NCBI GenBank assembly: GCA_963817525.1
Contig: CAWFOU010000001.1
Coordinates: 352,001 to 416,000 of the forward strand
Source: an uncultured archaeon
GTDB lineage: Archaea; Thermoproteota; Nitrososphaeria; Nitrososphaerales; Gagatemarchaeaceae
Direction: 5' to 3'
Length of the DNA: 64,000 bases
The position numbers and the translations under genes were made by a program. This document shows positions 28,801-42,046 of this stretch, in pieces (position 1 is the stretch's first letter; each line of letters opens with the position of its first letter). The notes beneath the pieces are model-generated. The model was not told the origin of the DNA. It did not search any database and saw nothing but the letters and a program-made list of their open reading frames with translations.

Positions 28801-31250
28801 TCAGTTCGAAGCTCACTTTTTCAGGGCAGGAGAAGCTCAAGCAGCTGAACATCCTGCCCTTCGAAGGGACCGTCTTCTGTGTGACCACCGAGAGAAACCA
28901 CACGGTCATCGCAGGTAGGAACGGTAGGTTCGTCCCGGTCGGTCAGTCCTACGGGGTGATGGGATTCGAGACCTTCGCCCTTTACTGTCTCCCGGTAGCG
29001 GACGCGACGGCGGCGTTCGGGAGGGACGCGATCACCAGGACGATAGAGAAATGTAAAAATGAAGGGGTTTCTGTGATATATTCTGATACTGACAGCCTTT
29101 TTATTGAAAATCCTAACAAGGACAAAATCGCGGATGTCCTAAGGTGGGCGGACAAGGAGCTCGGGGTCGAGCTCGAGGTAGACAAGACCTACCGATACGT
29201 CGCCTTCAGCCAGCTCAAGAAGAACTACTTCGGGGTGCTCCAGGACGGGACCGCGGACATCAAAGGTTTGACGGGGAAAAAATCGGTCGACGGGGAAACC
29301 CCCATTCTCGCGCGCATCGACGGGATCACTACGTTCACAACCGTGGCGGACGTCTATAGCAAGTTCGTCGAGAAACATTCTGTGGAACTCATCAGCGTCG
29401 GCGACGATTTGCGCTCAAACTGGGCACCTATCAACGATGCAACGCGGCACGAAGTTGACGACGTCTATGTGATTCGAACCAGCAAGGGCAGGATCCTGAA
29501 GCTGTCCGGGGATCACAGTGCGTTCTTCATTGATGCTTGTGGCCGTCTGCACAGTAAGGAAACAAGAAACGCCCTTGTGGGCGACGTCCTCGTGGGAACT
29601 CGATTCTTCCCCCAAGTCGCTCCTTCGAAAAGCGTCGATTTGAAACGGTATTTGCCAGAAACGACCGACCGGAATGGAATGCTTTTCTCCTCGAAAGCTC
29701 ACTCGACGACTGGCGTTCCGATTCCTAGGACCTTGGCGCTGACCAAAGACGTCGGAATGATTTTCGGAGTGTTCGTTGCGGAAGGATCTACGGCCAAGGA
29801 CCGTGCTTCAAGGTCGAACGACATCTCGCAGAACGAAATCTCAAATCCGGAGGTTTGTCGTGCTTTGGTAGCCGCGTGGTCTGCGACCTTTGGACGGCGA
29901 ATCAAACAGTTTGGCCCCCCAAACAAACGCGTATTCTATCTCCCGATACTCTACGCCGAACTCTTCAGGGAAACATGCGGCACAAGAAGCGCAGACAAGC
30001 ACGTCCCTGATTTCATCTTCAACGCGCCTTTGGAAGTCATCGAGAGCTTCCTTCGCGGGCTCTTCTCTGGAGATGGCTTCAGTAATGGAAGAAAGATCTC
30101 AATTGCTTCCGAGAGTAAGAGATTGATTGAAGAGACCGGCTACCTTCTTGGCTATTTTGACATCGATACGAGGATCCGAGTGTGCTACAACTCACGTTTC
30201 AACATAGAGTACTATCAACTCAGCGTAATTGGGACGTCAAGCAGGAGGAGGTTCCAAGCGCGGATTGGGTTCCTCCAGCCAAGGTCCCAGAAGATGCCCG
30301 ATAACGGACCACGCAACAAGGAACTACTCCCCATTTCCACCGTGGGGTTGGTGGAAGTGAAGGCAAGCATACTCAAGAGATTGGGACTGAAAAGATTCAG
30401 GCACGTAAACATGCATGATATCAGATTCTTCAACCTGAGCCTTCTCCAGCACTACAACGAAGTGATCGATTCCTTGGCCAGACATGCGAATGACGTAGAG
30501 TCTGCCACGCTGGCGAGAATCAGGAGAATGTTGAACACTCAGGATGTCACATATGATGAGATTATCGAGCTGAAACGAGTTCCCGGAAGCTGCGTGATGT
30601 ACGATTTCTCGGTTCCGAGTACAGAGCGATTCGTTGCGGGAAACCTCCCGACGCTGCTCCACAACAGCCAGACCCCCGAATTCTTGAAGAATGAGTTCTA
30701 CCAGGTGCTCGACATCCTCGGCGCGGTCTACAGCCAGGCAGACTTCGACCAGGCCAAATCGAGGATCAAGAAGCTCCTCACCGACATGGTGACCTCGCTG
30801 AAGGATAGGAAGGTCCCCATCGAGGACCTCTCGTTCAACGTGATGATGGGCAAGTCCATCAGCGGGTACAAGTCAACAAGGTCCCCCGAGCCTCCCAGGA
30901 AAGACGCCCAGGCCCGGCAGGCTCAGGGCTTGCTCCACGAGAGGCCGGAGGCGCCCCAGGAGAGCGGTTTCAACGCGATATCTATGGATGGGAAGCCCCA
31001 GCACGTCAAGGCCGCGATCCTCCTCGCCAGGAGCTCCAATCGCGAGGTGAAGGCAGGCGAGCTGATATCGTTCGTGAAGACCAAGGGCGGGGAGGGGGTC
31101 AAGCCCACGAGCCAGGCCAAGCCGGAGGACATCGATGTCGACAAGTACATCGAGTATGCGAGCTCGATGTTCGATCAGGTGCTCAGCGCCCTCGACCTCT
31201 CCTTCGAGTCTGTGGTCCCGAAGACCAGCCTCGACGCGTTCTGGTCCTAG
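25866..31250 (+). CDS. polB1: family B DNA polymerase (PolB1) with two inteins; about 890-aa mature protein
   Basis: DIEV, FNGDDFD, DFASLYPS, KVILNA|SYG, YSDTDS, KKNY, KGLTGKK|SQTP. Confidence 0.95.
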   Translation: MQETTTKQLDLAERLRALTTPATDLEEGLLVSATYDGDTRRAVLKFYDAKQERVWLWEDKSGHKPYCYTKLSDQEIASAGVEVGKSGITGIVPEKRRDLLNDAEITVKKITATDPLAIGGSPTSLREKMECWEADIKYFENYVYDRGLRVGTYYKIAQGEVTPVQKEVAGEVKRSLDAIVAKASGDAALYIKDWAELLGQPLSNFKRIACDIEVANEENRIPDPEIADREVIAVSFYNDRESIVYLIDKSGEDRSLDGALTGYTPTVFADEASLLRATFAKMMEYPFLITFNGDDFDLRYLKHRAMRKEIGIREEEIPIALQRQEASLKHGVHIDLYRFFNNRSIQVYVYNNRYTEHTLNGIAEALLGKEKIPFEGNIAELPLVELADYCLNDSTLTYDLTAANDSLLMKMLLVIARIAKMPMNDVARLGVSNWIRSMIFYDHRRIGALIPRSDELRQKGGASSEAIIKGKKYKGGLVIEPKPGIYFGVSVLDFASLYPSIIKVHNLSYETVNCIHEECRSNRVPDTDHWICTKRSGIESLLIGSLRDLRVGHYKALSKDKALPKESKDLYSTVTQGLKVILNACFTGDTLVVTPTGIKNIKDFRVGDQVINVNPETLEVEMDKVVAVQAYHYDGDIYHFQDKRFVDLMVTPNHRLLTIDRRKSSKSGAIFRSAEEVRDLANVAIPKLRTGVGRDSANNRVSMLKVAKEIGVFASVYPPSGIRLINWFRTLPSELQKNIRENGRVRKLGTQPTLEKPVKNRQSRYELPADAVEEVDVDAVEAAGGRVLLGESHSRQVPARYLAADLASLSGWFVSAGNPHSSQMKIYASGRVRGKTSGIMISQGFGKGNVMGTQYRAEIQGLLGRLGLRSIQDSGRNKYFKVSSSILNRWVLSQCYVEGEGHGATAKRIPDFVFESSDTMKEFLASVYKGDGNRRRVRYSTVSTRLANDMVVLLSLLGYKAKLSYESESHIYRIVFKNVSSKLTFSGQEKLKQLNILPFEGTVFCVTTERNHTVIAGRNGRFVPVGQSYGVMGFETFALYCLPVADATAAFGRDAITRTIEKCKNEGVSVIYSDTDSLFIENPNKDKIADVLRWADKELGVELEVDKTYRYVAFSQLKKNYFGVLQDGTADIKGLTGKKSVDGETPILARIDGITTFTTVADVYSKFVEKHSVELISVGDDLRSNWAPINDATRHEVDDVYVIRTSKGRILKLSGDHSAFFIDACGRLHSKETRNALVGDVLVGTRFFPQVAPSKSVDLKRYLPETTDRNGMLFSSKAHSTTGVPIPRTLALTKDVGMIFGVFVAEGSTAKDRASRSNDISQNEISNPEVCRALVAAWSATFGRRIKQFGPPNKRVFYLPILYAELFRETCGTRSADKHVPDFIFNAPLEVIESFLRGLFSGDGFSNGRKISIASESKRLIEETGYLLGYFDIDTRIRVCYNSRFNIEYYQLSVIGTSSRRRFQARIGFLQPRSQKMPDNGPRNKELLPISTVGLVEVKASILKRLGLKRFRHVNMHDIRFFNLSLLQHYNEVIDSLARHANDVESATLARIRRMLNTQDVTYDEIIELKRVPGSCVMYDFSVPSTERFVAGNLPTLLHNSQTPEFLKNEFYQVLDILGAVYSQADFDQAKSRIKKLLTDMVTSLKDRKVPIEDLSFNVMMGKSISGYKSTRSPEPPRKDAQARQAQGLLHERPEAPQESGFNAISMDGKPQHVKAAILLARSSNREVKAGELISFVKTKGGEGVKPTSQAKPEDIDVDKYIEYASSMFDQVLSALDLSFESVVPKTSLDAFWS
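27618..28946 (+). mobile_element. intein 1 (443 aa, Cys1...Gly-Gln) with LAGLIDADG-type endonuclease
   Basis: CFTGDT block A, VTPNH block B, ends RNGRFVPVGQ|S. Removal restores LNA-SYG. Confidence 0.92.
29283..30665 (+). mobile_element. intein 2 (461 aa, Ser1...His-Asn) with LAGLIDADG endonuclease
   Basis: SVDGETPI, SGDH, GVFVAEGS, LRGLFSGDG, YDFSV, LLHN|S. Lower GC than the extein. Confidence 0.92.
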
Positions 31251-32962
31251 GAGAACTTCGATACCTTCTCGCGGACCTCCGAGAGGAAGTCCTCGAGCTT
31301 CACCCCGTACCTCACGTCCCCGTCCCTAGCCCTGACCGCGACGGAGCCTGCCCGCTCCTCCTTCGAGCCGATGACGAGCATGTAGGGGACCTTCTGGATC
31401 TGGGCGTCCCTGATCTTCCCCCCGATAGTGCCGCTCGCGTAGTCGCCCTCGACCCTTATGCCCGCTTCCACGAGGGTCCGTGCGACCTTCTCCGCGTAGG
31501 CCCTGCTCTCGTCAGAGACCGGCATGACCCTCACCTGGACCGGAGACGCCCAGACGGGGAGCCTCCCCTGCACGTGCTCGAGGTAGACGCCGATGAACCT
31601 CTCGAGGGAACCTAGAATCGCCCGGTGTATCACCACGGGGGTGTGCTCCTTCCCGTCGGAGCCCGCGTAGGTCAGCTTGAACCTCTGCGGGAGCTGGTAG
31701 TCGAGCTGGATCGTCGAGTTCTGCCACTCCCTGCCCATCGAGTCCTTGATGTCGACGTCGATTTTGGGACCGTAGAAGGCGCCGTCCTTCTCCTTCACCT
31801 TGTACTGGAGCCCCTTCGCCTCCATCACGCGTGAGAGGATCGACTCGGCTTTCTCCCAGAACTCCCTGGTCCCAAGGTGCTCGTCGGGCATCGTGGAGAG
31901 GTTGAGCTTGTACTCGAGCCCGAATATCTTGAAGACCCTGTCCATGAGGTCGATCATCCCCTTCACCTCGCCCTCGACCTGCTCGTCCGTGGCGAAGATG
32001 TGGGCATCGTCCTGCGAGAAGGACTTGACCCTGAAGAGCCCGCTCGCCACCCCGCTCAGCTCGTTCCTGTAGAGCCAGTCGAAGCACGAGACCCTCAGGG
32101 GAAGCTCCCTGAAGCTCCACCTCCTCGTCCGGTAGAATAGCATGGTCGGAGGGCAGTTCATCGGCTTTAGGGCGAACTCCTCACCGCCCAGGTCCGTCAG
32201 GAACATGTTCTGCTTGTAATAGCCCCAGTGGCCGCTAACCTTCCACAGGGCGCTGCTGAACATCGCAGGGGTGCTGACCTCGATGTAGCCGCCCTTCGCG
32301 AGCTCTCCGCGCATGAACTCGATCAGGAGGTTCCTGAGCTTCAGCCCCTTGTTGTGCCAGTAGACCATCCCCGGGGCGGGCTCCTGGAAGCTGAACAGGT
32401 CGAGCCTCTCGCCTATTATCCTGTGGTCGGTCTCCGGGAGACCTGCAAAGTCGCTCTTCCTCAGCCGCGCGAAAAGCTGCTCCTCGGTGAGCTCGTGCTG
32501 GGGCTTCCTCTCTGGCTGCGGGGCCGCCTCCGCCTTTGCCGCTGGCGCGGCGCTGGTGTATACACGCGACTGCTCGGCCAGAGGGTGGCCCTTTACCTTG
32601 ATCTGGAACGCCTTGTTCCAGCCGAACGGCGCGCGGTAGGTCTCCAGCCCGGCCTCGTTCGCCAGCCTCTCCATGGTCTTCAGCACTTCGAGCGCGTCCT
32701 TTGGCCTTGCGAGGTTCGAGCTCAGGTGGGCGTAGGGGTAGATGATTATCCTCCTGACCTTCAGCTTCTCGAGGAACGCCCTTGTCCCTTCGACCGCCTT
32801 TCTTGCGACCTCGTCGTCGTCGCCCGGCTCAACGCTCACGAACAGCGCGACTATCTCCTCGTACCTGCGCTTCTGCTTGTCGGGTATGTCCTCCGCCGCG
32901 GATATCTCCTTGCCTATCGGCTCGTACTCGATGAAGTCAAGGTGCTGCTGGAGTATCCTCAT
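31247..32962 (-). CDS. thrS: threonyl-tRNA synthetase
   Basis: Archaeal editing domain YPYAHLSS/PFGW; KPMNCP, FYGPKID, IHRAILGSLERF. Confidence 0.96.
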   Translation of the reverse strand: MRILQQHLDFIEYEPIGKEISAAEDIPDKQKRRYEEIVALFVSVEPGDDDEVARKAVEGTRAFLEKLKVRRIIIYPYAHLSSNLARPKDALEVLKTMERLANEAGLETYRAPFGWNKAFQIKVKGHPLAEQSRVYTSAAPAAKAEAAPQPERKPQHELTEEQLFARLRKSDFAGLPETDHRIIGERLDLFSFQEPAPGMVYWHNKGLKLRNLLIEFMRGELAKGGYIEVSTPAMFSSALWKVSGHWGYYKQNMFLTDLGGEEFALKPMNCPPTMLFYRTRRWSFRELPLRVSCFDWLYRNELSGVASGLFRVKSFSQDDAHIFATDEQVEGEVKGMIDLMDRVFKIFGLEYKLNLSTMPDEHLGTREFWEKAESILSRVMEAKGLQYKVKEKDGAFYGPKIDVDIKDSMGREWQNSTIQLDYQLPQRFKLTYAGSDGKEHTPVVIHRAILGSLERFIGVYLEHVQGRLPVWASPVQVRVMPVSDESRAYAEKVARTLVEAGIRVEGDYASGTIGGKIRDAQIQKVPYMLVIGSKEERAGSVAVRARDGDVRYGVKLEDFLSEVREKVSKFS

Positions 32963-32983
32963 CGGTGTTCCCCGGAGTCCTTC

Positions 32984-33190
32984 CTAGCCCCATCGGGCCC
33001 GTTCTATGTCTCTGTCCTTCTTGGTGGCCTTCTTCCAGGTCTTGTAGTGCTCGCGGCAAAGGTAGACCCGCCTCCCCTCACCGCCGGCGGTGAGGCCGCT
33101 CCCCGCTAGCTGGTCCCTTCCCATGGACCTCTCACTCGGGTTCTTGCAGCCTGCAATTGAGCACGTGACGCCCTTCTCGACTTTGCCCAT
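32984..33190 (-). CDS. small conserved Zn-binding protein, first gene upstream of thrS
   Basis: CSIAGC...YLCREHY; 21-nt gap to thrS. Confidence 0.75.
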   Translation of the reverse strand: MGKVEKGVTCSIAGCKNPSERSMGRDQLAGSGLTAGGEGRRVYLCREHYKTWKKATKKDRDIERARWG

Positions 33191-33213
33191 TCTGAATCCG
33201 GGCTGCCGAGTCC

Positions 33214-33375
33214 ATATTTATAATCTGTTAACGCATCGTTAACGCTTAACGTAAGGCACGCGATAGGTTCTGTCTGGGTTTTGCTAGATTCCGGCGGACG
33301 GGGTGCGGCATCGGGCGTCGCTGGCGACGATGGCGACCGTTCTTCAGGTTCTTTCTTTGGTTCGAGGTCTGTCAT
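33214..33375 (-). CDS. int(N): N-terminal fragment of the split integrase
   Basis: MTDLEPKK...VNDALTD-YKY. The YKY codons are the att core, in the same frame as int(C). Confidence 0.65.
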
Positions 33376-33429
33376 TAGGTAGGTATGGTGTGGAGTTTGT
33401 AATAAATTCAATTTCCCTAAACGTTAGCC

Positions 33430-33705
33430 GCCCGTGTTAACGCGAAAGGGCGGCCTGATTCGGTCGGTCTAAAGCCGCCGCCGTGTCTCTAGCGCAGCGA
33501 TAGGCGCGGCCACTGGAGGCCGCGGACGGCGGCGGCGTGTGGTCTAAGGACACTGGAGGCCGCCCCGTGCTAGCACGAGAAGGGCGGCGGGAGGCGGCGG
33601 TTCTACGCGGAGCGTTTCAGCGAGCGAAATCCGTTCCCCGGAACGGTGATTGAGCGAGCTACGCCGCCGATAAGATGACGCGTAGACTGGATTGTGTTAA
33701 CTTAT
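33430..33705. other. highly structured GC-rich non-coding region, candidate single-strand origin
   Basis: Nested stems GCCGCCGCCGT/ACGGCGGCGGC, CGCGGCC-ACTGGA-GGCCGCG, CGTGCTAGCACG; repeated CACTGGAGGCCGC and GGTCTAA. Confidence 0.55.
33596..33670. repeat. structured repeat, copy 1
   Basis: GGCGGTTCTACGCGGAGCGTTTCAGCGAGCGA-hairpin-GAGCGAGCTACGCCGCCGA. Confidence 0.85.
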
Positions 33706-33755
33706 CTGCGCTCAGCGATTGATGGGCCAAGAATAGTCACCATAGGCCGCCCCAT

Positions 33756-34454
33756 TTATTCCGTTACCGTGGTCATTAGAGGTGGTGCAAGCAACTGTGA
33801 CTCACACAGTGGAGGCTCGTGCAACGAGCACGGTAAGTATTGCTTCGTAATGAACAAGGTAACTTGGTAAGTCCCAGAAGGCATTCCTGCAAAGGAGCCA
33901 ACGTCGCAATAGGTATAGCCGGTCTTCGGGATATAACAGGAGCTGCTCGTGGTGACATTCTGGCCAGTCGATACATCCTGGTAAAATGCAGTAGCAGTTA
34001 CCGTATAATTTGAGCCCTCAAAAGGGATGATGGTAATTGGGGTAGCATTGCCCAAGTCCTGACCCGCGAATGCGAGTGTTAGTTCGAGGCAGTTTGTATC
34101 GCACCACTTTACCGGAGAGTTCGGCGCCCACATTAGCGGATATTGAGCGCTTGATTCAACCGTTGATTGCATACTGGACGTTGACTTACTGGTTGAGGTC
34201 GGGGCAACGGTTGACTGAATGATAGAGCCGCTGGTAGAGAGGATTGAAGACGCCGAGCCGATGGAAGAACTCGAATGGACATTGTTGGGATTTTCGGGTA
34301 ATGAGCTGGTCCTCTGTGATGAAATGAGAGCGGCGGCAATCACGATTAGCCCAACAGTAATGGCGCAAGTAACAAGGAAGAAGTTCCCTGCCGCAAGGCC
34401 TTTCCTCTTTTGCCCGGCTTCAAACCTCATTCCTACCGAGCGTCTGTGGTTCAA
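33756..34454 (-). CDS. membrane-anchored extracellular Ser/Cys-rich protein (element cargo)
   Basis: N-terminal TM, Ser/Thr stalk, Cys pairs. Start may be ATG 34430. Confidence 0.75.
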   Translation of the reverse strand: MNHRRSVGMRFEAGQKRKGLAAGNFFLVTCAITVGLIVIAAALISSQRTSSLPENPNNVHSSSSIGSASSILSTSGSIIQSTVAPTSTSKSTSSMQSTVESSAQYPLMWAPNSPVKWCDTNCLELTLAFAGQDLGNATPITIIPFEGSNYTVTATAFYQDVSTGQNVTTSSSCYIPKTGYTYCDVGSFAGMPSGTYQVTLFITKQYLPCSLHEPPLCESQLLAPPLMTTVTE

Positions 34455-34515
34455 AGCGTAGAAATGAGGGCGAGGGTGATATTTCAGGGGTTCGCATCAT
34501 TGTTCTATTAGGTCG

Positions 34516-34579
34516 GGCGGTTCTACGCAGAGCGTTTCAGCGAGCGAGGATTTCATTTCCGAGCGAGCTACGCCACCGA
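34516..34579. repeat. structured repeat, copy 2
   Basis: GGCGGTTCTACGCAGAGCGTTTCAGCGAGCGA-GGATTTCATTTCC-GAGCGAGCTACGCCACCGA. Confidence 0.85.
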
Positions 34580-34606
34580 CTCGATCAGAATATAGGTTGG
34601 AGGCAG

Positions 34607-34954
34607 TCAAGCCTTAGAGGTTGACTCTACGGGAATAGGTCTGACTTCCTTCATGCTGTACGTCAACTCTTTCTTGCATCGCGGGCACGTTGCCTTGAAG
34701 GTTACTCCAATAGACCTGTCCGTTATCATGTTCTCCCAGAATGACGTAGACCTAACTCCGCCTTTGGGCTGTATCTCAGTAAGGTCTATTGTTGCGAAGC
34801 AGTGTCTGCAGATGACGCCATTGTGTGAGGAGACGTAATTCTCAATCAGGGTTTCGATGACATCATTCTTCTTGCGGCCTCCCTGCTCCTCCATTACGGT
34901 GATGCTGAATTTCTTCCACAGTTCGTCCGGGACGTCGATAGTTGTTTTTACCAA
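34607..34954 (-). CDS. CopG-like RHH regulator fused to a Zn ribbon
   Basis: KTTIDVPDELWKKF...VIETLIENYV followed by CRHC...CPRC; divergent from rep. Confidence 0.75.
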   Translation of the reverse strand: MVKTTIDVPDELWKKFSITVMEEQGGRKKNDVIETLIENYVSSHNGVICRHCFATIDLTEIQPKGGVRSTSFWENMITDRSIGVTFKATCPRCKKELTYSMKEVRPIPVESTSKA

Positions 34955-34959
34955 GCTGA

Positions 34960-35076
34960 CTTCTGCCCTTCTGCTTTCTACGTTCTGGGTTCTGCTCTTT
35001 TAACCTTATTCCCGTTTACCCGCGTATGCGGGTATAGCGGGCCCTTATATTCGCCTTATAGAAGGGGATAAGGGGA
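34960..35076. promoter_or_regulatory. RHH/rep intergenic control region, candidate operator and double-strand origin
   Basis: Five TTCT(G/A) repeats 7-8 nt apart, hairpin TACCCGCGTATGCGGGTA, tandem AAGGGGAT. Confidence 0.5.
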
Positions 35077-35082
35077 TAGCGT

Positions 35083-36243
35083 ATGCCGATGCAAACTCAC
35101 GCGTTTAAGGCAAGCATGGAGGTTCGGGTAACAGCCGAAACGTGCGGAGGGAGGAAGCCGAATCCGGGGCTGGACGCAATCAGGACAGAACTCTTTCCGT
35201 TGGAGTCGACGGAGTGTGAGGCATGCGGGACGCGTTTGTGGACCGCGAAGTGCAGCAGCGGATGCGTTACTCATGTAAGGCAGATGTGCAGGAGGGACAA
35301 TCTATGTCCCGCCGATTCGTTCAGGCGTTCGAGCGAGCTGGCGGGCGATTTTGTGCGGGTAGCTCAAGGCTTGTGTAGCGCCGCGGGGGTAAAGCTTCGA
35401 TTCTGGCGTTGGGAGGTGACGATGCCCAGAGACACGCAAAAGGGCATGACGCTGGACGAGGGGTATGAGTTCACAAGAGAGGCGAAGCGCTACGTGGAGG
35501 GCTACCTTCGGGAGAGGTTCGGGATACCCGAGGAAGTCCAGCTAGGCAGCGCGGTGGTCTTCCAGATGCTGCACAGCAGCGACCCGTTCGGAATGAAGAA
35601 GAACCATCGCGGCGCTGACCGGAGACACTTCCACTATCACGGGGTGACGCTGGGGTGGGGCGTGTGGAAGTCGGAGGCCACCGTCTATCGGGGTCCCAAC
35701 AGCTTGTTCGTCCAAGACAGCGCGATCGTGGACGGCGAGAAGAGGAAGTTCGTAAGGTTCCGCGCTGGCTGGCGCGCCGTGGTTGAGGGCCGCTTTGGAA
35801 GGTCGAGCGCTAAGGACGTGGACGGCTTCATCCGCTATGAGAGCGGGACGGCGGAGCTGTATCACCGTTTCAGATACATGATGAGAGGCGGGGTGGAGGA
35901 CTTTGCACAGTGGACCCGGAGATACGGGTATCCGCAGGACTACGACAAGGAGTGGGTGCGGGAAGCGCTGACGTGGAAGAAGGGGAGGCCGAGGGTCTTG
36001 TATTACGGCTTCCTGTCTCCCAAGAACCTGTCGGAGAAAAACAGGTTCATGCGGAAGATCGCCTTGGCGATTCCGACCAAGGCGCTGCGGCTGAGAGAGG
36101 CGAGGAAGCTGTATTGCGACAAGCATGGCGAGGAGCTACGGATAGACTTCGCGGCTGGCCTGAAGCACATCAGCGAGGTGATGGCTGAAGGCGGCACGAT
36201 AGTGGTGCGGCTTCGAAGTGCGGTCGAGTATGGAGGCGGCTAA
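35083..36243 (+). CDS. HUH rolling-circle replication initiator, IS91-transposase-like
   Basis: N-terminal Cys cluster, WEVTMP (motif I), HFHYH (HUH), RFRYMMR (Tyr), RVLYYGFLS, C-terminal CDKHG. Confidence 0.75.
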   Translation: MPMQTHAFKASMEVRVTAETCGGRKPNPGLDAIRTELFPLESTECEACGTRLWTAKCSSGCVTHVRQMCRRDNLCPADSFRRSSELAGDFVRVAQGLCSAAGVKLRFWRWEVTMPRDTQKGMTLDEGYEFTREAKRYVEGYLRERFGIPEEVQLGSAVVFQMLHSSDPFGMKKNHRGADRRHFHYHGVTLGWGVWKSEATVYRGPNSLFVQDSAIVDGEKRKFVRFRAGWRAVVEGRFGRSSAKDVDGFIRYESGTAELYHRFRYMMRGGVEDFAQWTRRYGYPQDYDKEWVREALTWKKGRPRVLYYGFLSPKNLSEKNRFMRKIALAIPTKALRLREARKLYCDKHGEELRIDFAAGLKHISEVMAEGGTIVVRLRSAVEYGGG

Positions 36244-36345
36244 AAAATGACGCTCCTGAAAGGGTCTGGGGAAAGCTCAGAGAGTTTCCCCACGCTCGGC
36301 GGCAGGCGCGAAGCGCCGCCGCCGCATGCAGGACGGCGAGCGTGA

Positions 36346-36573
36346 ATGGCGGAGTCAGAGCTAATCCCAAGGCCAACATGGGTCTATTTCCGCATTGTAG
36401 GCAAAGACCACAATTTGTTGAAGGTCACATTTGATGTTGATATTGGAGGTTCGTTCCTGTTGAAGCTGGATTACATAGAGAAGCTGAAAGCTGAACTGAT
36501 TGATAGGGCGTATAGTCGGTTCTCTCCCGATTCGATGGAATATAGGAACCGGTCGAAAAGACCGGACTTTTAG
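36346..36573 (+). CDS. small hypothetical protein
   Basis: 75-aa ORF downstream of rep, after hairpins at 36268-36343. Confidence 0.5.
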   Translation: MAESELIPRPTWVYFRIVGKDHNLLKVTFDVDIGGSFLLKLDYIEKLKAELIDRAYSRFSPDSMEYRNRSKRPDF

Positions 36574-37361
36574 CCAGTTTGCAATTCGGAGATAAACTGA
36601 GCCAGAGGAACCCCATCAACCTTGATGGGGAGCCAAGCGTCGGCTTGGGGATACATGTTGTCAAGGGAGAAGACCTTTCCGTCTTGCACGTAGAATAGGC
36701 CTTCGGCCCCTGCTGCCGTAACGTATGCATTACAGCAGACCGCTAGGTTGTTGATGTTGGTCCAATAGGGGATGTATGCGCTGGGGAAGCTGTCGGTGAC
36801 AAAGAAGATGTACGTCCCTCCTACTGTCAAGGTCGGGTATCCGAGAGGCGTCATAGTCGTCCCGTTCACGGTTCCGCCGATCCAAGCGAGGGTAGCGACT
36901 GTTCCCGCCGGAGCCACATAAGTTCCCGGTGACGAAAGTGTCTCCACATCTGTGAAGTTATACAGCATGAATGGGATGCCATTCACGGACACTGTGGTGG
37001 CTGACGTCACGTTCGCGAGCACCGCGGCTGAGTTCTGGAGTAAGTCGTGGAGAGTCGGGAACGTTGAATCAGGAAAGACGTAGACCGTGCAGTTGCACGG
37101 CCCCTTAAGGAAGCCAACCGTTTCAATACCTCCGTCTATGCTGGTTCCTATGGTGACGGTTCGCGTCTGCGATGTGACGCTAGCCGAGGCACTCGTGGTG
37201 AGGTTCTGAGTTTGGCTCGATGTTGTAGAATAAAATATCGTTTGTTCCGCTGACGAAACAGGACTCGTCGTCCTAGAATACATTGAGGCGGCGATTAGCG
37301 CCAAGAGTATCAGCGCCGCTATTACAACGGCCGCGGCGGTGAGGCCTCTCGGAGTTGGCAC
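36570..37361 (-). CDS. membrane-anchored extracellular protein (element cargo)
   Basis: N-terminal TM, S/T stalk, CNC and CC motifs. Confidence 0.75.
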   Translation of the reverse strand: MPTPRGLTAAAVVIAALILLALIAASMYSRTTSPVSSAEQTIFYSTTSSQTQNLTTSASASVTSQTRTVTIGTSIDGGIETVGFLKGPCNCTVYVFPDSTFPTLHDLLQNSAAVLANVTSATTVSVNGIPFMLYNFTDVETLSSPGTYVAPAGTVATLAWIGGTVNGTTMTPLGYPTLTVGGTYIFFVTDSFPSAYIPYWTNINNLAVCCNAYVTAAGAEGLFYVQDGKVFSLDNMYPQADAWLPIKVDGVPLAQFISELQTG

Positions 37362-37439
37362 GATGTGTCGGGAAGATAAATTCCCAAGGTTGATTTAAAG
37401 GATAAGAATACGAAATCGAACCAAAGGAGAAGCGCCCAA

Positions 37440-37461
37440 GGGCTGAGGCGCGTCTCAGCCC
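37440..37461. terminator. hairpin at the integrase 3' end
   Basis: GGGCTGAG-GCGCGT-CTCAGCCC overlapping the stop codon. Confidence 0.4.
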
Positions 37462-38621
37462 AGTTTGGCTAGGAGCTTCTGCATGATTCGGTTGTTCTCG
37501 ATGACCTGAGCCTTTAGCTCGTCGTTCTGTTTGCGAAGCGCCTCGATTTCGTCTGTATTGGCACTAGATCGGATTGGGTCTTTTGGCGTGTCTGGTTCGT
37601 TGGTTTCTCCGATTGAAAGATAGGGCGCTAGGAACCTATCGTATTCGTTGATGAGGTCTGCAAAGTCCTCCAGCGTATAGGTTCCTGCGTTGTGCCCAAG
37701 CGATTGCTTGTCGCCCATGAGGTAGTCCCATGAGTTGACGGGCATTACCGTCTTGCCTGCGATGGTGTGGAATCGCTTCCGCAGGTAGTGGCTCGTCAGC
37801 CTGACGCCGAACCTGTCAAGCGCGAGCTTGGTAATCTCGCGCCATATGCTGTCGTGGTTCGGGAAGGGTCTGTTTCGTCCCGCTGCCCTGGCGCGTTCTC
37901 TGATGCGGTCCGCCAAAGCTTTAGGGATGATGGAGATGTGTGCGTTTCGGGCCTTGGTCTGGCGCATCTGGACGTGAATTAGGACGTAGGAGCCCGCATC
38001 CTCCCACTGGTCTATGGTGACTTGGGACGCCAAGCAGGTAACTCGTTCCCCAGCGTAGGCTTGCAAGTCGATGATGTCTCGCTGCTCCTCCGTGGCGGCT
38101 TGGTAGATGGCTTGGAGGATGCCAATGCTAATCTTCTTCGTTGAATGCGTCCATGATGTGTTGAAGGACGCTTGGAGCGGCGTTCTGTTCGCCTTGAAGA
38201 TGCCTTTCACATAGGCGCCATACTGGCAGTTGGTGATTACGGGCGGCTTTGATACGAATTCAAGCAAGGCGTTGTCGATGGAAAAATCGTCGCGCCGTCG
38301 TCGCTCTCTTGTCTCACTGATTAGTTCCGAGACGGCTGTTCCTGTAATGGGTCGGTTGAGGTGCTGGAGGAAGCATCGTATGCCGTTGATTGAGTGGGTT
38401 CGTGTGCTGTGGCATACCGTGCCTCCGTTGCGCCGCCGGCTTCCCACAGATGCGTAGTATAGCTTCATGGCGGGGTCTGCTTGCAAGATGCGGTGAAGCG
38501 CTGCAAGTTCTTCGATTCGCTTGCGGTTCGGTCGTGGGTGGAATTGTCTGTAGGTGTTTACAAATGATTGCGCTTGCGGTTTTTCGCTTAACGCTTGACG
38601 AGTTAACTGATTATATTTATA
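37455..38621 (-). CDS. int(C): tyrosine recombinase body of the split integrase
   Basis: AGERV (R), QTK (K), HYLRKRF (HxxR), YLMGD...LGHNAGTY (Y), C-terminal coiled coil. Frame open through the att core. Confidence 0.9.
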   Translation of the reverse strand, partial: YKYNQLTRQALSEKPQAQSFVNTYRQFHPRPNRKRIEELAALHRILQADPAMKLYYASVGSRRRNGGTVCHSTRTHSINGIRCFLQHLNRPITGTAVSELISETRERRRRDDFSIDNALLEFVSKPPVITNCQYGAYVKGIFKANRTPLQASFNTSWTHSTKKISIGILQAIYQAATEEQRDIIDLQAYAGERVTCLASQVTIDQWEDAGSYVLIHVQMRQTKARNAHISIIPKALADRIRERARAAGRNRPFPNHDSIWREITKLALDRFGVRLTSHYLRKRFHTIAGKTVMPVNSWDYLMGDKQSLGHNAGTYTLEDFADLINEYDRFLAPYLSIGETNEPDTPKDPIRSSANTDEIEALRKQNDELKAQVIENNRIMQKLLAKLG

Positions 38622-38699
38622 GCATATTCCCGGGGCCGAGGGCCGTTCCCAGGTGCAAGTTATCAAGCCAGGCCGCCCGGCAGCAAGAGAGGCGGACGC

Positions 38700-39296
38700 T
38701 TGCTAGACAGGCTGAGGGGGTCCCTCACTGAGGTCCTCGCCTCGCTGGGCAAGAGCGCCGCCAAGCTCGTCCCCAGCCCCACCGCGTGGACGCTCGTGGG
38801 TCTGCTCTTCGCGCTGCTCGCGTTCGCATTTTACAGCCGGGGTGATCCGTTCCTGGCGGCCCTCATGCTCCTCGTCTCGGGGTTCTTCGACGTCCTGGAC
38901 GGGGCAGTGGCCCGGGCGACGGGCAGGACGAGCCAGAGGGGTGCGTTCCTCGACTCGACGCTGGACCGGGTCGCGGAGGTCCTCGTCTATCTTGGGATAA
39001 TCGTCGGCGGGTACACCAACCCCTCCCTCGTCCTAGTTGCGCTCTCCTCAAGCCTTCTGGTGAGCTACACCCGCGCGAAAGGCGACGCGCTAGGCGTGAG
39101 CCTCGCGGGCATAGGCGTCGGCGAACGGCCAGAGAGGCTGCTCGTGCTGATAGTGGCCTCCCTTCTGGGAATAGTCTGGCTCGGGGTCCTGATTGTGGCA
39201 CTGCTCGCGCTGATCACCTTCGTCCAGAGGACGGTCACCGTGAGCAGGGCGCTCGGGCGCCCAAAGGCGGCCGGCGCCACACAGCCGCCCCCGTGA
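38700..39296 (+). CDS. CDP-alcohol phosphatidyltransferase (archaetidylinositol phosphate synthase-like)
   Basis: DVLDGAVAR...GAFLDSTLDR. Confidence 0.9.
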   Translation: MLDRLRGSLTEVLASLGKSAAKLVPSPTAWTLVGLLFALLAFAFYSRGDPFLAALMLLVSGFFDVLDGAVARATGRTSQRGAFLDSTLDRVAEVLVYLGIIVGGYTNPSLVLVALSSSLLVSYTRAKGDALGVSLAGIGVGERPERLLVLIVASLLGIVWLGVLIVALLALITFVQRTVTVSRALGRPKAAGATQPPP

Positions 39297-39316
39297 GCTC
39301 TAGCTAGTCAAGGCGC

Positions 39317-39595
39317 TCAGAACTTGTTGTGTCTCTCGGACTTGGCCCGTACGTTCACTATACCGTAATGTACGGAACAGCTGATACAATAGTAACGAAC
39401 GGTGGTGGGCGCCGCGATGTAAGCGCCGGCCGCCCTGAGCTCCCTCGCGAGGAGGGGCTCGACCAGGCTCAGCCTCGTCGTGACCTTCTTCGCCTTGTCT
39501 CTCGGGACAAGCGCGCCGCAGTTGCTGCACGAAATGAAGCCGGAGCTCCCCTTTCCGCCCTTGGACCTTCCCCGACTCTTTCTCTTCTTTGTCAT
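39317..39595 (-). CDS. rps26e: 30S ribosomal protein eS26
   Basis: MTKKRKSRGRSKG, CSNCG..VPRDKA, YCISCSVH. Confidence 0.96.
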   Translation of the reverse strand: MTKKRKSRGRSKGGKGSSGFISCSNCGALVPRDKAKKVTTRLSLVEPLLARELRAAGAYIAAPTTVRYYCISCSVHYGIVNVRAKSERHNKF

Positions 39596-39710
39596 CCTAA
39601 TACCGGGAAAGGCGGCGCCAGGGCCTGCTTAAAAGGTTGGGGCACGCCAAAGGCGACGTCCGACTCCAGAAGTCTTAAGACGCTTCCGGAGTGGACGAAG
39701 GGGAGCCGGG

Positions 39711-40610
39711 TTGAATGTCCTTGTCGCGGGTTTCATCACTATCGACAGGATCGAGCTCAACCTGCGGCAGATAGTCTCGATAGGCGGGCCTCCGTGCTAC
39801 GCCGGCCTCCTGTGCGCCAGGTTCGGCTTCGACGTGACGCCCCTCACCAAGGTCGGACCCGACTTCCCCGACGAGCAGATCGTATGGCTCGCGCGCAACG
39901 GGCTCCAGCTCCGCGCAATCGACAGGAGCAGCACAAAGAAGACGACCCGCTTCAAGCTCGTCAACAAGGGGGACGAGCGCTCGCTATACCTCGTCGAGAG
40001 GTGCGAGGACCTGACCCTCGACCAGGTCCCGGACAAGCAGTTCAACGCCTCGCTCATCAGCCCGCTGGCGCACGAGGTCTCGACGCAGCTCTTCGAAGAG
40101 ATAAGGAAGCGCTCTGACTTTTGCTTCTTGGACCCCCAGGGGTTCGTGAGGATGTTCGAGGCCTCGGGGAGGGTCATCGTCGACAGCTGGAACGACGAGA
40201 AGGTGCTCGGGAACGTGGACGCGCTCAAGATGGACCTCGAGGAAGCCCACGCGCTGACCGGGACCTCCGATGGCAAAGCCGCCCTCGTGAAGCTCTCAAA
40301 GAAGGTGAGGAAGGCGGTGGTCACCAGGGGGAGCGAGCCCGCCCTGGTTCTCGACGGGAACAAGATCTCTCAGGTGGAGGTCCCGAAGGTCAAGGTGCTG
40401 GACAGCACCGGCGCGGGGGACATCTTCGCGGGCTCGCTCATCAGCTGCTTCCTGCGGTCGCGCGACTTCCTCTGGTCGTGCTGCTTCGGCATAGCCGCGT
40501 CCTCCATGTCTCTCACCTCCATAGCCCTGGGCAAGATAGAGCTCCCGCACAGCGTCGACCAGCAGGCGAGGAAGCTCTACGCCTCGGCGACGACCGTCGA
40601 GACCGTGTGA
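39711..40610 (+). CDS. PfkB-family carbohydrate kinase
   Basis: GGPPCYAG, LDPQG, DSTGAGDIF. Confidence 0.88.
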   Translation: MNVLVAGFITIDRIELNLRQIVSIGGPPCYAGLLCARFGFDVTPLTKVGPDFPDEQIVWLARNGLQLRAIDRSSTKKTTRFKLVNKGDERSLYLVERCEDLTLDQVPDKQFNASLISPLAHEVSTQLFEEIRKRSDFCFLDPQGFVRMFEASGRVIVDSWNDEKVLGNVDALKMDLEEAHALTGTSDGKAALVKLSKKVRKAVVTRGSEPALVLDGNKISQVEVPKVKVLDSTGAGDIFAGSLISCFLRSRDFLWSCCFGIAASSMSLTSIALGKIELPHSVDQQARKLYASATTVETV

Positions 40611-40612
40611 GC

Positions 40613-42046
40613 TCAGTAGGCCTTTGCCAGGTAGGCCAGCTCCGTCCCCTTCATCCCGCACCAGGTGCATGTCTCTGCGTGCTTCTCCTGGATGTCGACC
40701 CTCTTCCCACGCACCTCGTACCCCCCCGTCTGGGCCTTTATCTCGCGGGCGCACTCCTCCCTCCCGCAGAAGGTGAACTTGATGAAGCCCCCCACACCCC
40801 TCGCCTTGGCGAGCAGGTCCTCCTTCGATGAGGCCTCGTGGATGTTGGAGTTCAGCCACTCCCACGCCTTCCGGGACATGTCGGCGAGCATCTCGCGCTC
40901 GAGCGAGGCCAGGTGCGAGACCAGCGAGTCTTCCTTCACGCTCTCCCTCTTCCTCAGGTCTCTCCTGGTGACGGTGAGCACCTTGCTCTCCGCCTCCCGA
41001 GGGCCTATCTCGATCCTGACCGGGGTCCCGAGCATCTCCCAGCGGTAGAACTTCTCGCCCGCGGTCTCCGAGCCGTCGTCGACCTTGACCCTGTAGCCGG
41101 CATCCGCCAGCCTCCCTTCGAGGGCCCGGGCGTAGAACGCCAGCTCGGGCTCGTTCCTTATCGGGATGATCACAACCTGGACGATGGCCGCCTTGAAGGG
41201 CAGCACGAGGCCGTAGTCGTCGCCGTGGACGGATATCACAAGGGCGGCTATCCTGGAGACCCCAGGCCCGAAGCAGGTGGACTCGGGGACCACCTTCTGC
41301 CCGTCGGACGCGAGGTATGACACCTCGAACGGGCCTGTGAACCTCTTCCCCAGGAGGTGGGTCGTAGCGGACTGGAGCACCTGCTTGTCAGGCAGGACGA
41401 CGTCGTACGCGAGGCTCCTCTCCGCGCCAGGGAACCTGTCGAAGGGCTCCCTCTCGATGGGGAGGAAGGGGAGGCCGAACTCCTCGAACGTCTTCCTCGT
41501 GATCTCCATGTCCTCGGTGAGCTGGGCCTCCGCCCCCTGCCTCGTCGCAAAGACGTCGTGGGACTCGATCCAGAGGAACTCCCTCCCTCTGAAGAGTGGC
41601 CGGGTGGCCTTGGTCTCGTGGCGGTAGACCGCGCAGGACTGGAAGGCCTTGAACGGGAGGTCCCTGTAGCTCCTGATCCAGAGCGCGTACATCGGGTATA
41701 TCGCAGTCTCCGAGGTGGGCCTGATGAAGAGCCTCTCCTCCAGCTCCTCGCCCCCGGCCTTCTCCACCGAGAAGACCTGGTTCTCAAAGCCCTTGACGTG
41801 CTCCTTCTCCACAAGGAGGTTCTTGTACGGTATCAGGAGGGGGAAGAGCATCGCCTTGTGCCCGCTGGCGATGAGGTGCCTCTCGAGGCTCTCGTAGATC
41901 TCGCGTATTATGTGCATCAGGTTGGGCCTGAACACGACGAACCCCTTCACCCCGTACCTCACGTCGGCGAGCTCTGCCTTCTCCGAGACGAGGTCGTACC
42001 ACTCGCCGAACTGCTTCGTCTTTTCAGGGAGGGGGGCCTTCGCCAA
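40613..42046 (-). CDS. proS: prolyl-tRNA synthetase (archaeal/eukaryotic type)
   Basis: IRPTSET, RPLFRGREFLWIE, C-terminal AKAY. TTG 42046 inferred. Confidence 0.95.
   Translation of the reverse strand: MAKAPLPEKTKQFGEWYDLVSEKAELADVRYGVKGFVVFRPNLMHIIREIYESLERHLIASGHKAMLFPLLIPYKNLLVEKEHVKGFENQVFSVEKAGGEELEERLFIRPTSETAIYPMYALWIRSYRDLPFKAFQSCAVYRHETKATRPLFRGREFLWIESHDVFATRQGAEAQLTEDMEITRKTFEEFGLPFLPIEREPFDRFPGAERSLAYDVVLPDKQVLQSATTHLLGKRFTGPFEVSYLASDGQKVVPESTCFGPGVSRIAALVISVHGDDYGLVLPFKAAIVQVVIIPIRNEPELAFYARALEGRLADAGYRVKVDDGSETAGEKFYRWEMLGTPVRIEIGPREAESKVLTVTRRDLRKRESVKEDSLVSHLASLEREMLADMSRKAWEWLNSNIHEASSKEDLLAKARGVGGFIKFTFCGREECAREIKAQTGGYEVRGKRVDIQEKHAETCTWCGMKGTELAYLAKAY

Follow-up and report, generated by a model that had tools for sequence, protein, structure and literature searches.

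The stretch of DNA analysed here (hereafter the window, i.e., all 64,000 nucleotides, or 64 kb) belongs to the genome of an uncultured archaeon of the Gagatemarchaeaceae (Nitrososphaerales) and holds, near its middle, a small, probable integrative element, which is the subject of this report (Table 1). To the left of the element lie a minus-strand host gene for a cysteine-rich protein of 68 amino acids (aa) and, after it, thrS, while a divergent gene for a CDP-alcohol phosphatidyltransferase lies to its right. Each end carries the 9-mer ATATTTATA, which reads YKY on the minus strand, as a first-pass annotation of this DNA had pointed out; when both strands of the window were searched, these two copies were the only ones (0.02 expected; none of 100 shuffles gave two). 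The sequences beside the two copies are unlike each other, so that the exact repeat is 9 bp long, and the offset between the copies (38613 – 33214) gives an insert of 5,399 bp, one core copy included. The GC content is 0.55 between the repeats versus 0.63 in the flanks, and the element is present once in its own genome (15 contigs, 2.8 Mb). No tRNA gene was found within positions 30000–42000 and no match to an Rfam family within 31000–41000, the identity between the two attachment (att) sites being 9 bp rather than tens of base pairs inside a tRNA gene. By itself, such a repeat is weak evidence (a naive scan gave chance repeats of 9–11 bp around the same junction), and the weight for the element boundaries therefore comes from empty sites and related elements, not from the repeat alone.

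The 68-aa gene was detected in 40 of the 41 genomes of the order that were searched, and the transferase gene lies no more than 1.5 kb away from it in 17 of 19 relatives’ loci. At 13 relatives’ loci, the starts of the two genes are just ~60–155 bp apart; six of these short-gap loci hold one copy of the exact 9-mer, 23 nt from the ATG of the 68-aa gene, as does the locus of L010. The empty chromosomal site (attB) predicted by the first-pass annotation is indeed present in relatives of the same genus, and in L005 it is identical letter for letter over all 24 nt, while more distant relatives show a TTTAGA-type box in the equivalent position. That the insert amounts to 5,399 bp thus follows from congeners in which the flanking genes are adjacent with one 9-mer, including one exact attB. 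Judging from its sequence and position, the target looks to be a TATA box serving the 68-aa gene, which would be leaderless, and in the genomes with the shortest gaps this TATA-like box may also serve the divergent gene, given its position and what is generally known of archaeal promoters. As for the 68-aa protein, it matched no family in Pfam, NCBIfam or PHROGs. Separately, in four congeners (L009, L016, L018 and L021), ~660–720 bp separate the 68-aa gene from the transferase gene, versus the usual ~100 bp, and in L015 no transferase gene lies within 1.5 kb of the former; all five genomes have a TTTAGA- or TATAAATA-type promoter box.

The two ends of the element hold the two parts of an integrase gene. 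On the minus strand, a frame that starts at ATG 33375 ends with ...ALTD-YKY at 33214 (hereafter int(N)), and the YKY at 38621 opens a frame of 388 codons with its stop at 37455 (hereafter int(C)). When the ends are joined in silico, they yield the 5,399-bp circle sequence put forward in the first-pass annotation, with a continuous frame of 1,320 nt (439 aa) that has no internal stop and in which YKY corresponds to residues 52–54. There is no in-frame ATG, GTG or TTG between the core and TTG 38486 or ATG 38468. The in-phase frame of int(N) stays open for 67 codons, the two other frames closing after 5 and 2. Upstream of its ATG lies a TATA-like heptamer that, by comparison with known archaeal promoters, is likely the int promoter and would yield a leaderless mRNA.

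Evidence that int(C) is coding up to the core comes from its relatives. In the metagenome contigs L069 and L070, int(C) is 92% and 90% identical to that of the window, and the attR junction is the same. Across the 48 codons before ATG 38468, the differences at codon positions 1/2/3 number 4/1/10 for L069 and 3/0/10 for L070, a third-position excess that is the pattern expected of a translated region. On the host side of the core, the open frame extends upstream over 15, 78 and 13 codons in the three genomes, and since its length thus varies, int(C) has no conserved host-borne start. Moreover, the alignments of 51 of 91 homologues reach beyond the equivalent of ATG 38468 on its upstream side, the first of them beginning at residue 53, just past the first residue of the core, in line with the N-terminal extension considered by the first-pass annotation.

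Table 1. Features of the integrated element and of its host locus (window coordinates).
Feature	Position	Strand	Remark
Host thrS, after the 68-aa gene	31247-32962	.	Threonyl-tRNA synthetase (ThrRS) domains
Host gene, 68-aa Cys-rich protein; its promoter box is the target	32984..33190	-	In 40/41 genomes searched
attL core, left 9-bp copy	33214..33222	.	On the minus strand, reads as a TATA-like box, with the ATG of the 68-aa gene 23 nt downstream; single copy in empty-site relatives
int(N): start codon, 51 codons and core codons	33214..33375	-	When integrated, reads into host DNA, stop at 33106
attP arm, int(N) side	33222..33232	.	Inverted copy, 10/11; encodes L-T-D
Integrated element body	33223..38612	.	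Not present between the two flanking genes of congeners
13-nt direct repeat, copy 1	33239..33251	+	Candidate accessory site
TATA-like heptamer, 24 nt upstream of ATG 33375	33400..33406	-	Read from the sequence
232-aa protein, N-terminal hydrophobic segment, Ser/Thr-rich stretch	33756..34454	-	No family match
115-aa protein, four-Cys zinc-ribbon-like C-terminal half, candidate regulator	34607..34954	-	Weak zinc-finger matches alone
386-aa protein, candidate HUH-type rolling-circle replication initiator	35083..36243	+	N-terminal Cys cluster
263-aa protein, N-terminal hydrophobic segment, Ser/Thr-rich stretch	36570..37361	-	No family match
int(C): 388 codons and stop, two-domain tyrosine recombinase body	37455..38621	-	Y315 = 37677-37679
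13-nt direct repeat, copy 2	38588..38600	+	Candidate accessory site
attP arm, int(C) side	38602..38612	.	Encodes N-Q-L-T; homologous arms in 7 other elements
attR core, right 9-bp copy	38613..38621	.	Identical junction in metagenome contigs L069, L070
Host CDP-alcohol phosphatidyltransferase gene, divergent neighbour	38700..39296	+	Adjoins the 68-aa gene in relatives

Sequence searches with the integrase against Pfam (E <= 0.01), PHROGs, NCBIfam and the PDB (by sequence and by profile) all remained without match, and the protein was identified through its fold and through weak matches of its relatives to PF00589, which are precomputed for 6 of the 91 homologues and reach E <= 1 in 11 of 35 aligned members (best 5.4e-7). 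An AlphaFold (AF2) model built from the alignment of these 35 sequences has a mean pLDDT of 88.5 and shows the two-domain fold (core-binding and catalytic) of tyrosine recombinases. Foldseek ranks XerA first (7.5e-6), followed by the Brujita integrase, Cre, XerH, lambda Int and the catalytic domain of SSV1 Int (TM 0.66 on target); 22 PDB chains have E <= 0.001, and those among them that were listed are all recombinases. The catalytic set R-K-H/K-R-H/W-Y is in place in the C-terminal domain (in int(C) numbering, R193, K223, H278, R281, W298 and Y315): R193, K223, R281 and Y315 are invariant over the 35 sequences, W298 is present in at least 90% of them, and position 278, a histidine here, is H/K family-wide. 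By its predicted fold and catalytic residues, the int(C) product is a divergent tyrosine recombinase.

Out of 1.84 billion representatives, a profile search recovered only 221 clusters at E <= 0.001, and the integrase family, as delimited by sequence, is small and sharply bounded. Its named homologue records all come from uncultured Nitrososphaerales, Nitrososphaerota, Thaumarchaeota or Conexivisphaerales genomes, and no relative was found in IMG/VR. The homologues P0008, P0015, P0020 and P0090 lie on contigs of 5.2–5.6 kb, which might represent episomal forms. Homologues of 476–520 aa were considered as candidate intact integrases and rejected, some (P0031, P0035, L078) being read-through from antisense host DNA and the others (P0055, L060, L061) having a tandemly duplicated N-terminal domain. 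Such a tandem N-terminal (core-binding-like) domain characterizes a subfamily of 475–490 aa (L060, L061, L033; P0055, P0059, P0065–P0067), for which no partner site was found within 14–17 kb.

In the joined circle sequence, the element’s own site (attP) is symmetric, as the first-pass annotation had described it: two 11-bp arms, complementary to each other at 10 of 11 positions, enclose an 8-nt spacer. These arms are probably the core-type sites at which the integrase binds. The 13-nt motif TTAACGCTT(A/G)ACG, which had also been singled out at that stage, occurs as one direct repeat at either end of the element and nowhere else in the window (0.05 expected), and its right-hand copy lies in a stretch of DNA that is kept even in L076, of which the integrase is just 50% identical; the two copies are possible accessory (arm-type) sites.

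To find related elements, a partner site, i.e., an inverted arm with an identical spacer, was searched for downstream of int(C) in 35 other non-redundant copies. Hits were kept when they had 0–1 arm mismatches or were anchored at the junction motif (for the anchored scan, an estimated ~0.015 chance hits per 17 kb), while a search for direct repeats of at least 9 nt near the start of int(C) gave mostly noise, the window included, and when as many as 2 arm mismatches were tolerated within 250 nt, hits were just as numerous in control zones. Partner sites were found for seven of the 35 copies and delimit elements of 9,148 bp (L052/L086, with a spacer identical to that of the window), 6,333 bp (L078), 5,418 bp (L059), 5,294 bp (L053), 4,399 bp (L056b), 2,984 bp (L058) and 2,236 bp (L062). 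The in-frame join, which the first-pass annotation allowed might be coincidental, is thus not a one-off, seven other elements having the same layout. In these relatives, the arm beside int(C) is of the AAT-C/T-n-G-T-T/A-A type and encodes N-x-L/Y; across the delimited elements, the arms depart from perfect inversion by 0–2 letters, and the stretch identical to the host comprises 5–9 nt inside the 8-nt spacer. Each of them has an open frame leading into the partner site that is in phase with int(C), contains a Met and ends with [LVY]-T-[DNC]-Y; where measured (five elements), this frame is open over 39–117 codons and the other frames close after 2–8.

The targets of these elements appear to be gene 5′ boundaries (TATA box or start codon) and not tRNA genes. 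The spacer contains the ATG of a host gene whose product starts with a hydrophobic stretch for the L059 element, the ATG of a host gene read as ribose-5-phosphate isomerase from its translation for L056b, and the TTG of an other-strand host gene, read as hisI from its translation, for L078. A second empty site is available for the L059 element, the flanks of which adjoin in a congener (L115) with an overlap of exactly the 8-nt spacer, and several further relatives agree. Finally, the spacer sequence of the window is found at three unrelated host loci, i.e., in the window, in L052 (upstream of a DUF72-like gene) and in L076 (near an ndk-like gene), and the same spacer at different loci argues for site-specific recombination rather than for a target-site duplication. 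One locus, L056 (G106:C3:161882-181880), holds two integrase copies that face each other ~12 kb apart, one of which is the delimited L056b (4.4 kb). Inverted integrase pairs are the substrate proposed in the literature for hybrid integrases.

Altogether, we consider it highly probable that the window holds a small integrative element that was inserted by its tyrosine recombinase into the TATA-like box of the 68-aa gene, thereby splitting its own integrase gene. According to this model, the element would carry the integrase, a probable rolling-circle replication initiator (Rep) and four small or membrane-type genes, with its attP inside the integrase gene, ~50 codons from the start. The integrase would bind the two inverted arms of 10–11 nt and exchange strands in the 8-nt spacer, which alone (here 8 nt + 1) would have to match the chromosome. 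The chromosomal partner would be the TATA-like box common to the 68-aa gene and the divergent transferase gene, and recombination would duplicate this box, so that each host gene would keep one. The same event would part the int promoter, the start codon and the first 51 codons (left end) from the 388-codon body (right end). The complete 439-aa integrase gene would then exist solely in the excised circle, which means that integration would turn the full-length enzyme off. The data directly show the element boundaries, the empty site, the fold and catalytic residues of the recombinase, a coding frame that continues to the core and a common layout in seven relatives; the circle with its intact gene, the activity of the enzyme, the binding role of the arms, the role of the 13-nt repeats and any promoter effects are inferred.

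Several observations weigh against this model. First, 28 of the 35 copies yielded no partner site, 11 of them having less than 1.3 kb of downstream sequence and 17 having at least 3 kb. The in-frame joins of the family are not independent trials, given that the arms are homologous. Regarding int(N), homologues of 48–156 aa were not detectable, and this part of the gene is of low complexity and ranges from ~14 to ~51 residues among elements, which makes its contribution to the protein uncertain. In the protein collection, all matches with at least 67% identity are 337–354 aa long, with no intact close relative among them, and the chromosomal flanks of attB show no likeness to the attP arms. Finally, the four soil metagenome runs with this DNA showed neither a circle nor an attP junction nor a read of the empty site; they consist of Logan contigs of depth 2–5 without joints and thus cannot inform on circles or empty sites. 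These Logan contigs bridge attL (33095–33360). One of them begins at 38627, a position that does not fit a branch at the core, and in run X1 loose contig ends occur at 36994 and 37035; the latter resemble what we take to be sequencing-adaptor sequence and stem from the run itself rather than from the locus.

Among the alternatives, the one that fares best, even though we regard it as unlikely, accepts the layout as real and takes the copy of this genome for a trapped relic, devoid of a working integrase and inherited only vertically. It would be in keeping with the lack of joints in the low-depth Logan contigs, with the single copy in the genome, which leaves no helper copy, and with an int(C) that has no start codon between the core and TTG 38486. 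It would also agree with the decay seen in relatives (G015 and G008 carry fragments with stops) and with the lack of a Rep gene in the L058 and L062 elements. Against such a relic, int(C), the Rep-like gene and the other frames of the element are uninterrupted, and the differences from close relatives are mainly synonymous (78 synonymous versus 26 non-synonymous codon differences relative to L069). Moreover, genomes resemble each other more in the integrase than in the host flanks: L070 and the window share 85.8% identity in int(C) and 79.0% in the host flank, the figures for L069 being 88.2% and 75.9%, in a comparison of regions that are under different constraints. Empty-site relatives are up to 79–81% identical to the window in the same host flank, so that hosts at equal distances include some with an occupied site and others with an empty one. 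These patterns are suggestive of an element younger than the divergence of its hosts and would fit repeated insertion at a single site. In G015, the decayed integrase (G015:C8:130104-131172) consists of three pieces with a TGA and lies 7.5 kb from a 68-aa gene with an empty promoter site.

It is even less probable that the integrase is a conventional, unsplit gene starting at ATG 38468 or TTG 38486, with attP just upstream and an int(N) that is in frame by coincidence. Such a gene is what gene callers propose for the closest homologues, which they start at the equivalent of ATG 38468 (337 aa); the body conserved family-wide begins ~45 residues past the core, and int(N) is poorly conserved. These points are to be set against the third-position bias in the 48 codons upstream of ATG 38468, the 51 homologues that align upstream of it and the Met at this position, which is not conserved in the family. 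Furthermore, a coincidental int(N) would have to account for eight elements in which it is in phase, open and provided with a Met while the other frames are closed, and the residues spanning the junction are conserved.

As for the hypothesis that the 9-bp repeat is not an att core but the target-site duplication of a transposase (e.g., an IS91-type HUH protein, a type that the motifs of the 386-aa protein do fit), we give it hardly any credence because such a duplication would vary from site to site, whereas the repeat is constant at three unrelated host loci and part of the element’s own symmetric site, in addition to which the L058 and L062 elements have the same ends without an HUH gene and IS91-type insertion is not known to make such a duplication.

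In its working principle, the integrase of the element is of the SSV type (type I), found in viruses of hot-spring archaea. SSV1, pTN3 and pT26-2 are described as having attP inside the integrase gene, integration resulting in an int(N) and a catalytic int(C) (Badel et al. 2021, PMC8371274; Badel et al. 2020, PMC7253208). In the 2021 review (PMC8371274), these “suicidal” integrases are treated as one lineage of hyperthermophile elements, in which the catalytic domain PF16795 (Phage_integr_3) unites the SSV, pTN3 and pT26-2 families, with long sites in tRNA genes and an att identity of 40–50 bp. Our element shares with them the attP inside the int frame and the int(N)/int(C) split, its intact gene being reconstructed in silico, as well as a compact module without a separate excisionase gene; the site lies ~63 codons into the gene in the SSV1 record and ~51 in the window. 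In contrast, SSV1 Int matches PF16795 (1.5e-61) and PF07935 (2.6e-34) while the window integrase matches neither family. PF16795 is absent from the 25 families listed for 35 members, the sole match in a six-frame PF16795 search of the window’s own genome lies outside the window (C1:965538-965804), and the hhalign probability between the window integrase and SSV1 Int is 8.7%. The proposal of a distinct integrase family made in the first-pass annotation thus holds at the sequence level. The two also differ in their sites, with a host identity of 5–9 nt and promoter-box or start-codon targets here instead of tRNA genes, and in their hosts, which here are mesophilic soil Nitrososphaerales instead of hyperthermophiles.

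Part of what the first-pass annotation gave as known nevertheless has to be amended. The split SSV1/pTN3-type integrases stand, but short att sites (8 bp), intergenic targets and a split thaumarchaeal integrase had already been published: in the passages available from PMC6563490 (Krupovic et al. 2019), the shortest att sites of thaumarchaeal elements measure 8 bp, intergenic regions host 15 of the 68 elements, small cryptic elements start from 2.6 kb, NitEve-E3 carries an MCM and a split “SSV1-like” integrase, and one element has a rolling-circle Rep of the SNJ1/IS91 kind. These passages contain no TATA-box or start-codon target and no arm–spacer–arm site. PF16795-type genes do exist elsewhere in the order (47 of 301 genomes over the cut-off, a tally that includes the unpublished G296), and the integrase of NitEve-E3 may belong to this classical family.

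Among simple tyrosine-recombinase sites, loxP (Cre) and dif (XerC/D, XerA) consist of two inverted arms of ~10–13 nt around a spacer of 6–8 nt, and homology is needed just in the spacer. The attP of our element has the same arm–spacer–arm structure, and XerA and Cre are among the best structural matches of its integrase. Unlike here, loxP and dif lie outside the recombinase gene and offer good arms on both partners, whereas the chromosomal site of the element has no recognisable arms. With the pNOB8/lambda type (type II), the element has in common a tyrosine recombinase with a weak PF00589 signal (11 of 35), yet in that type the gene remains intact and attP lies outside of it, while here the gene is split. 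A literature search returned no paper on this integrase family, on an in-gene arm–spacer–arm site or on promoter-box or start-codon targets, although the supplement of PMC6563490 may list similar sites.

Besides the integrase, the element encodes the proteins listed in Table 1 and a further 75-aa frame. The gene for the 386-aa protein is the second conserved gene of these elements: relatives are present in four of the six other delimited elements tested (L056b 52%, L052 32%, L059 29%, L078 26%), and the L058 and L062 elements (2–3 kb) are without it. Ten relatives of the protein were found, of which three have a longest-contig size identical to that of an integrase homologue. Invariant in the family are the Cys cluster and the HxHxH, RYE and R-Y-M-x-R-G motifs, with H182, H184, H186, Y252 and Y265 among the invariant residues, and the protein-language features fall near Rep_1 clusters (0.96). 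Pfam had no match in any of the 11 members, PADLOC gave nothing significant, and the best Foldseek E-value was 0.28, for a model with a pLDDT of 67.6. That the 386-aa protein may be a rolling-circle Rep is a supported lead rather than a finding. No convincing family match was obtained for the other cargo proteins in Pfam, NCBIfam, PHROGs and PADLOC scans; to our eye, the N-terminus of the 115-aa protein looks ribbon-helix-helix-like.

Two direct repeats flank the gene for the 232-aa protein (33596–33670 and 34516–34579): a 32-nt block (97% identity, spaced 920 bp) and a 19-nt block (95% identity, spaced 909 bp). They could reflect a duplicated replication origin or the insertion of the gene. 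In L070, a 57-bp copy (89%) of the 3′ end of int lies ~830 bp past the int stop (L070:3277-3333), with a gene for a 235-aa membrane protein in between. In both L069 and L070, what follows int bears no relation to the cargo of the window, so that near-identical integrases are found in elements of differing content.

We can only tentatively propose that this self-splitting layout has an origin separate from that of the SSV/pTN3/pT26-2 lineage, with an overlap of 5–9 nt taken from host gene 5′ boundaries and an integration that exchanges promoters. If this is true, one half of the host promoter region would face int(C), while the int promoter and int(N) would face the host gene, which would equip the element with an intrinsic means of shutting off its integrase and perhaps of regulating excision. 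The layout occurs here in a different-looking family, which is small, is hosted by Thaumarchaeota-type soil archaea and uses a site as simple as loxP or dif; were its origin independent, the “suicidal” design would be a repeatable solution and not a frozen accident. Moreover, the small size of the site (two 10-nt arms and an 8-nt spacer) and the existence of at least five natural spacers make the rules of target choice directly testable. Finally, promoter-box and start-codon targets raise the question of how insertion rewires the neighbouring genes.

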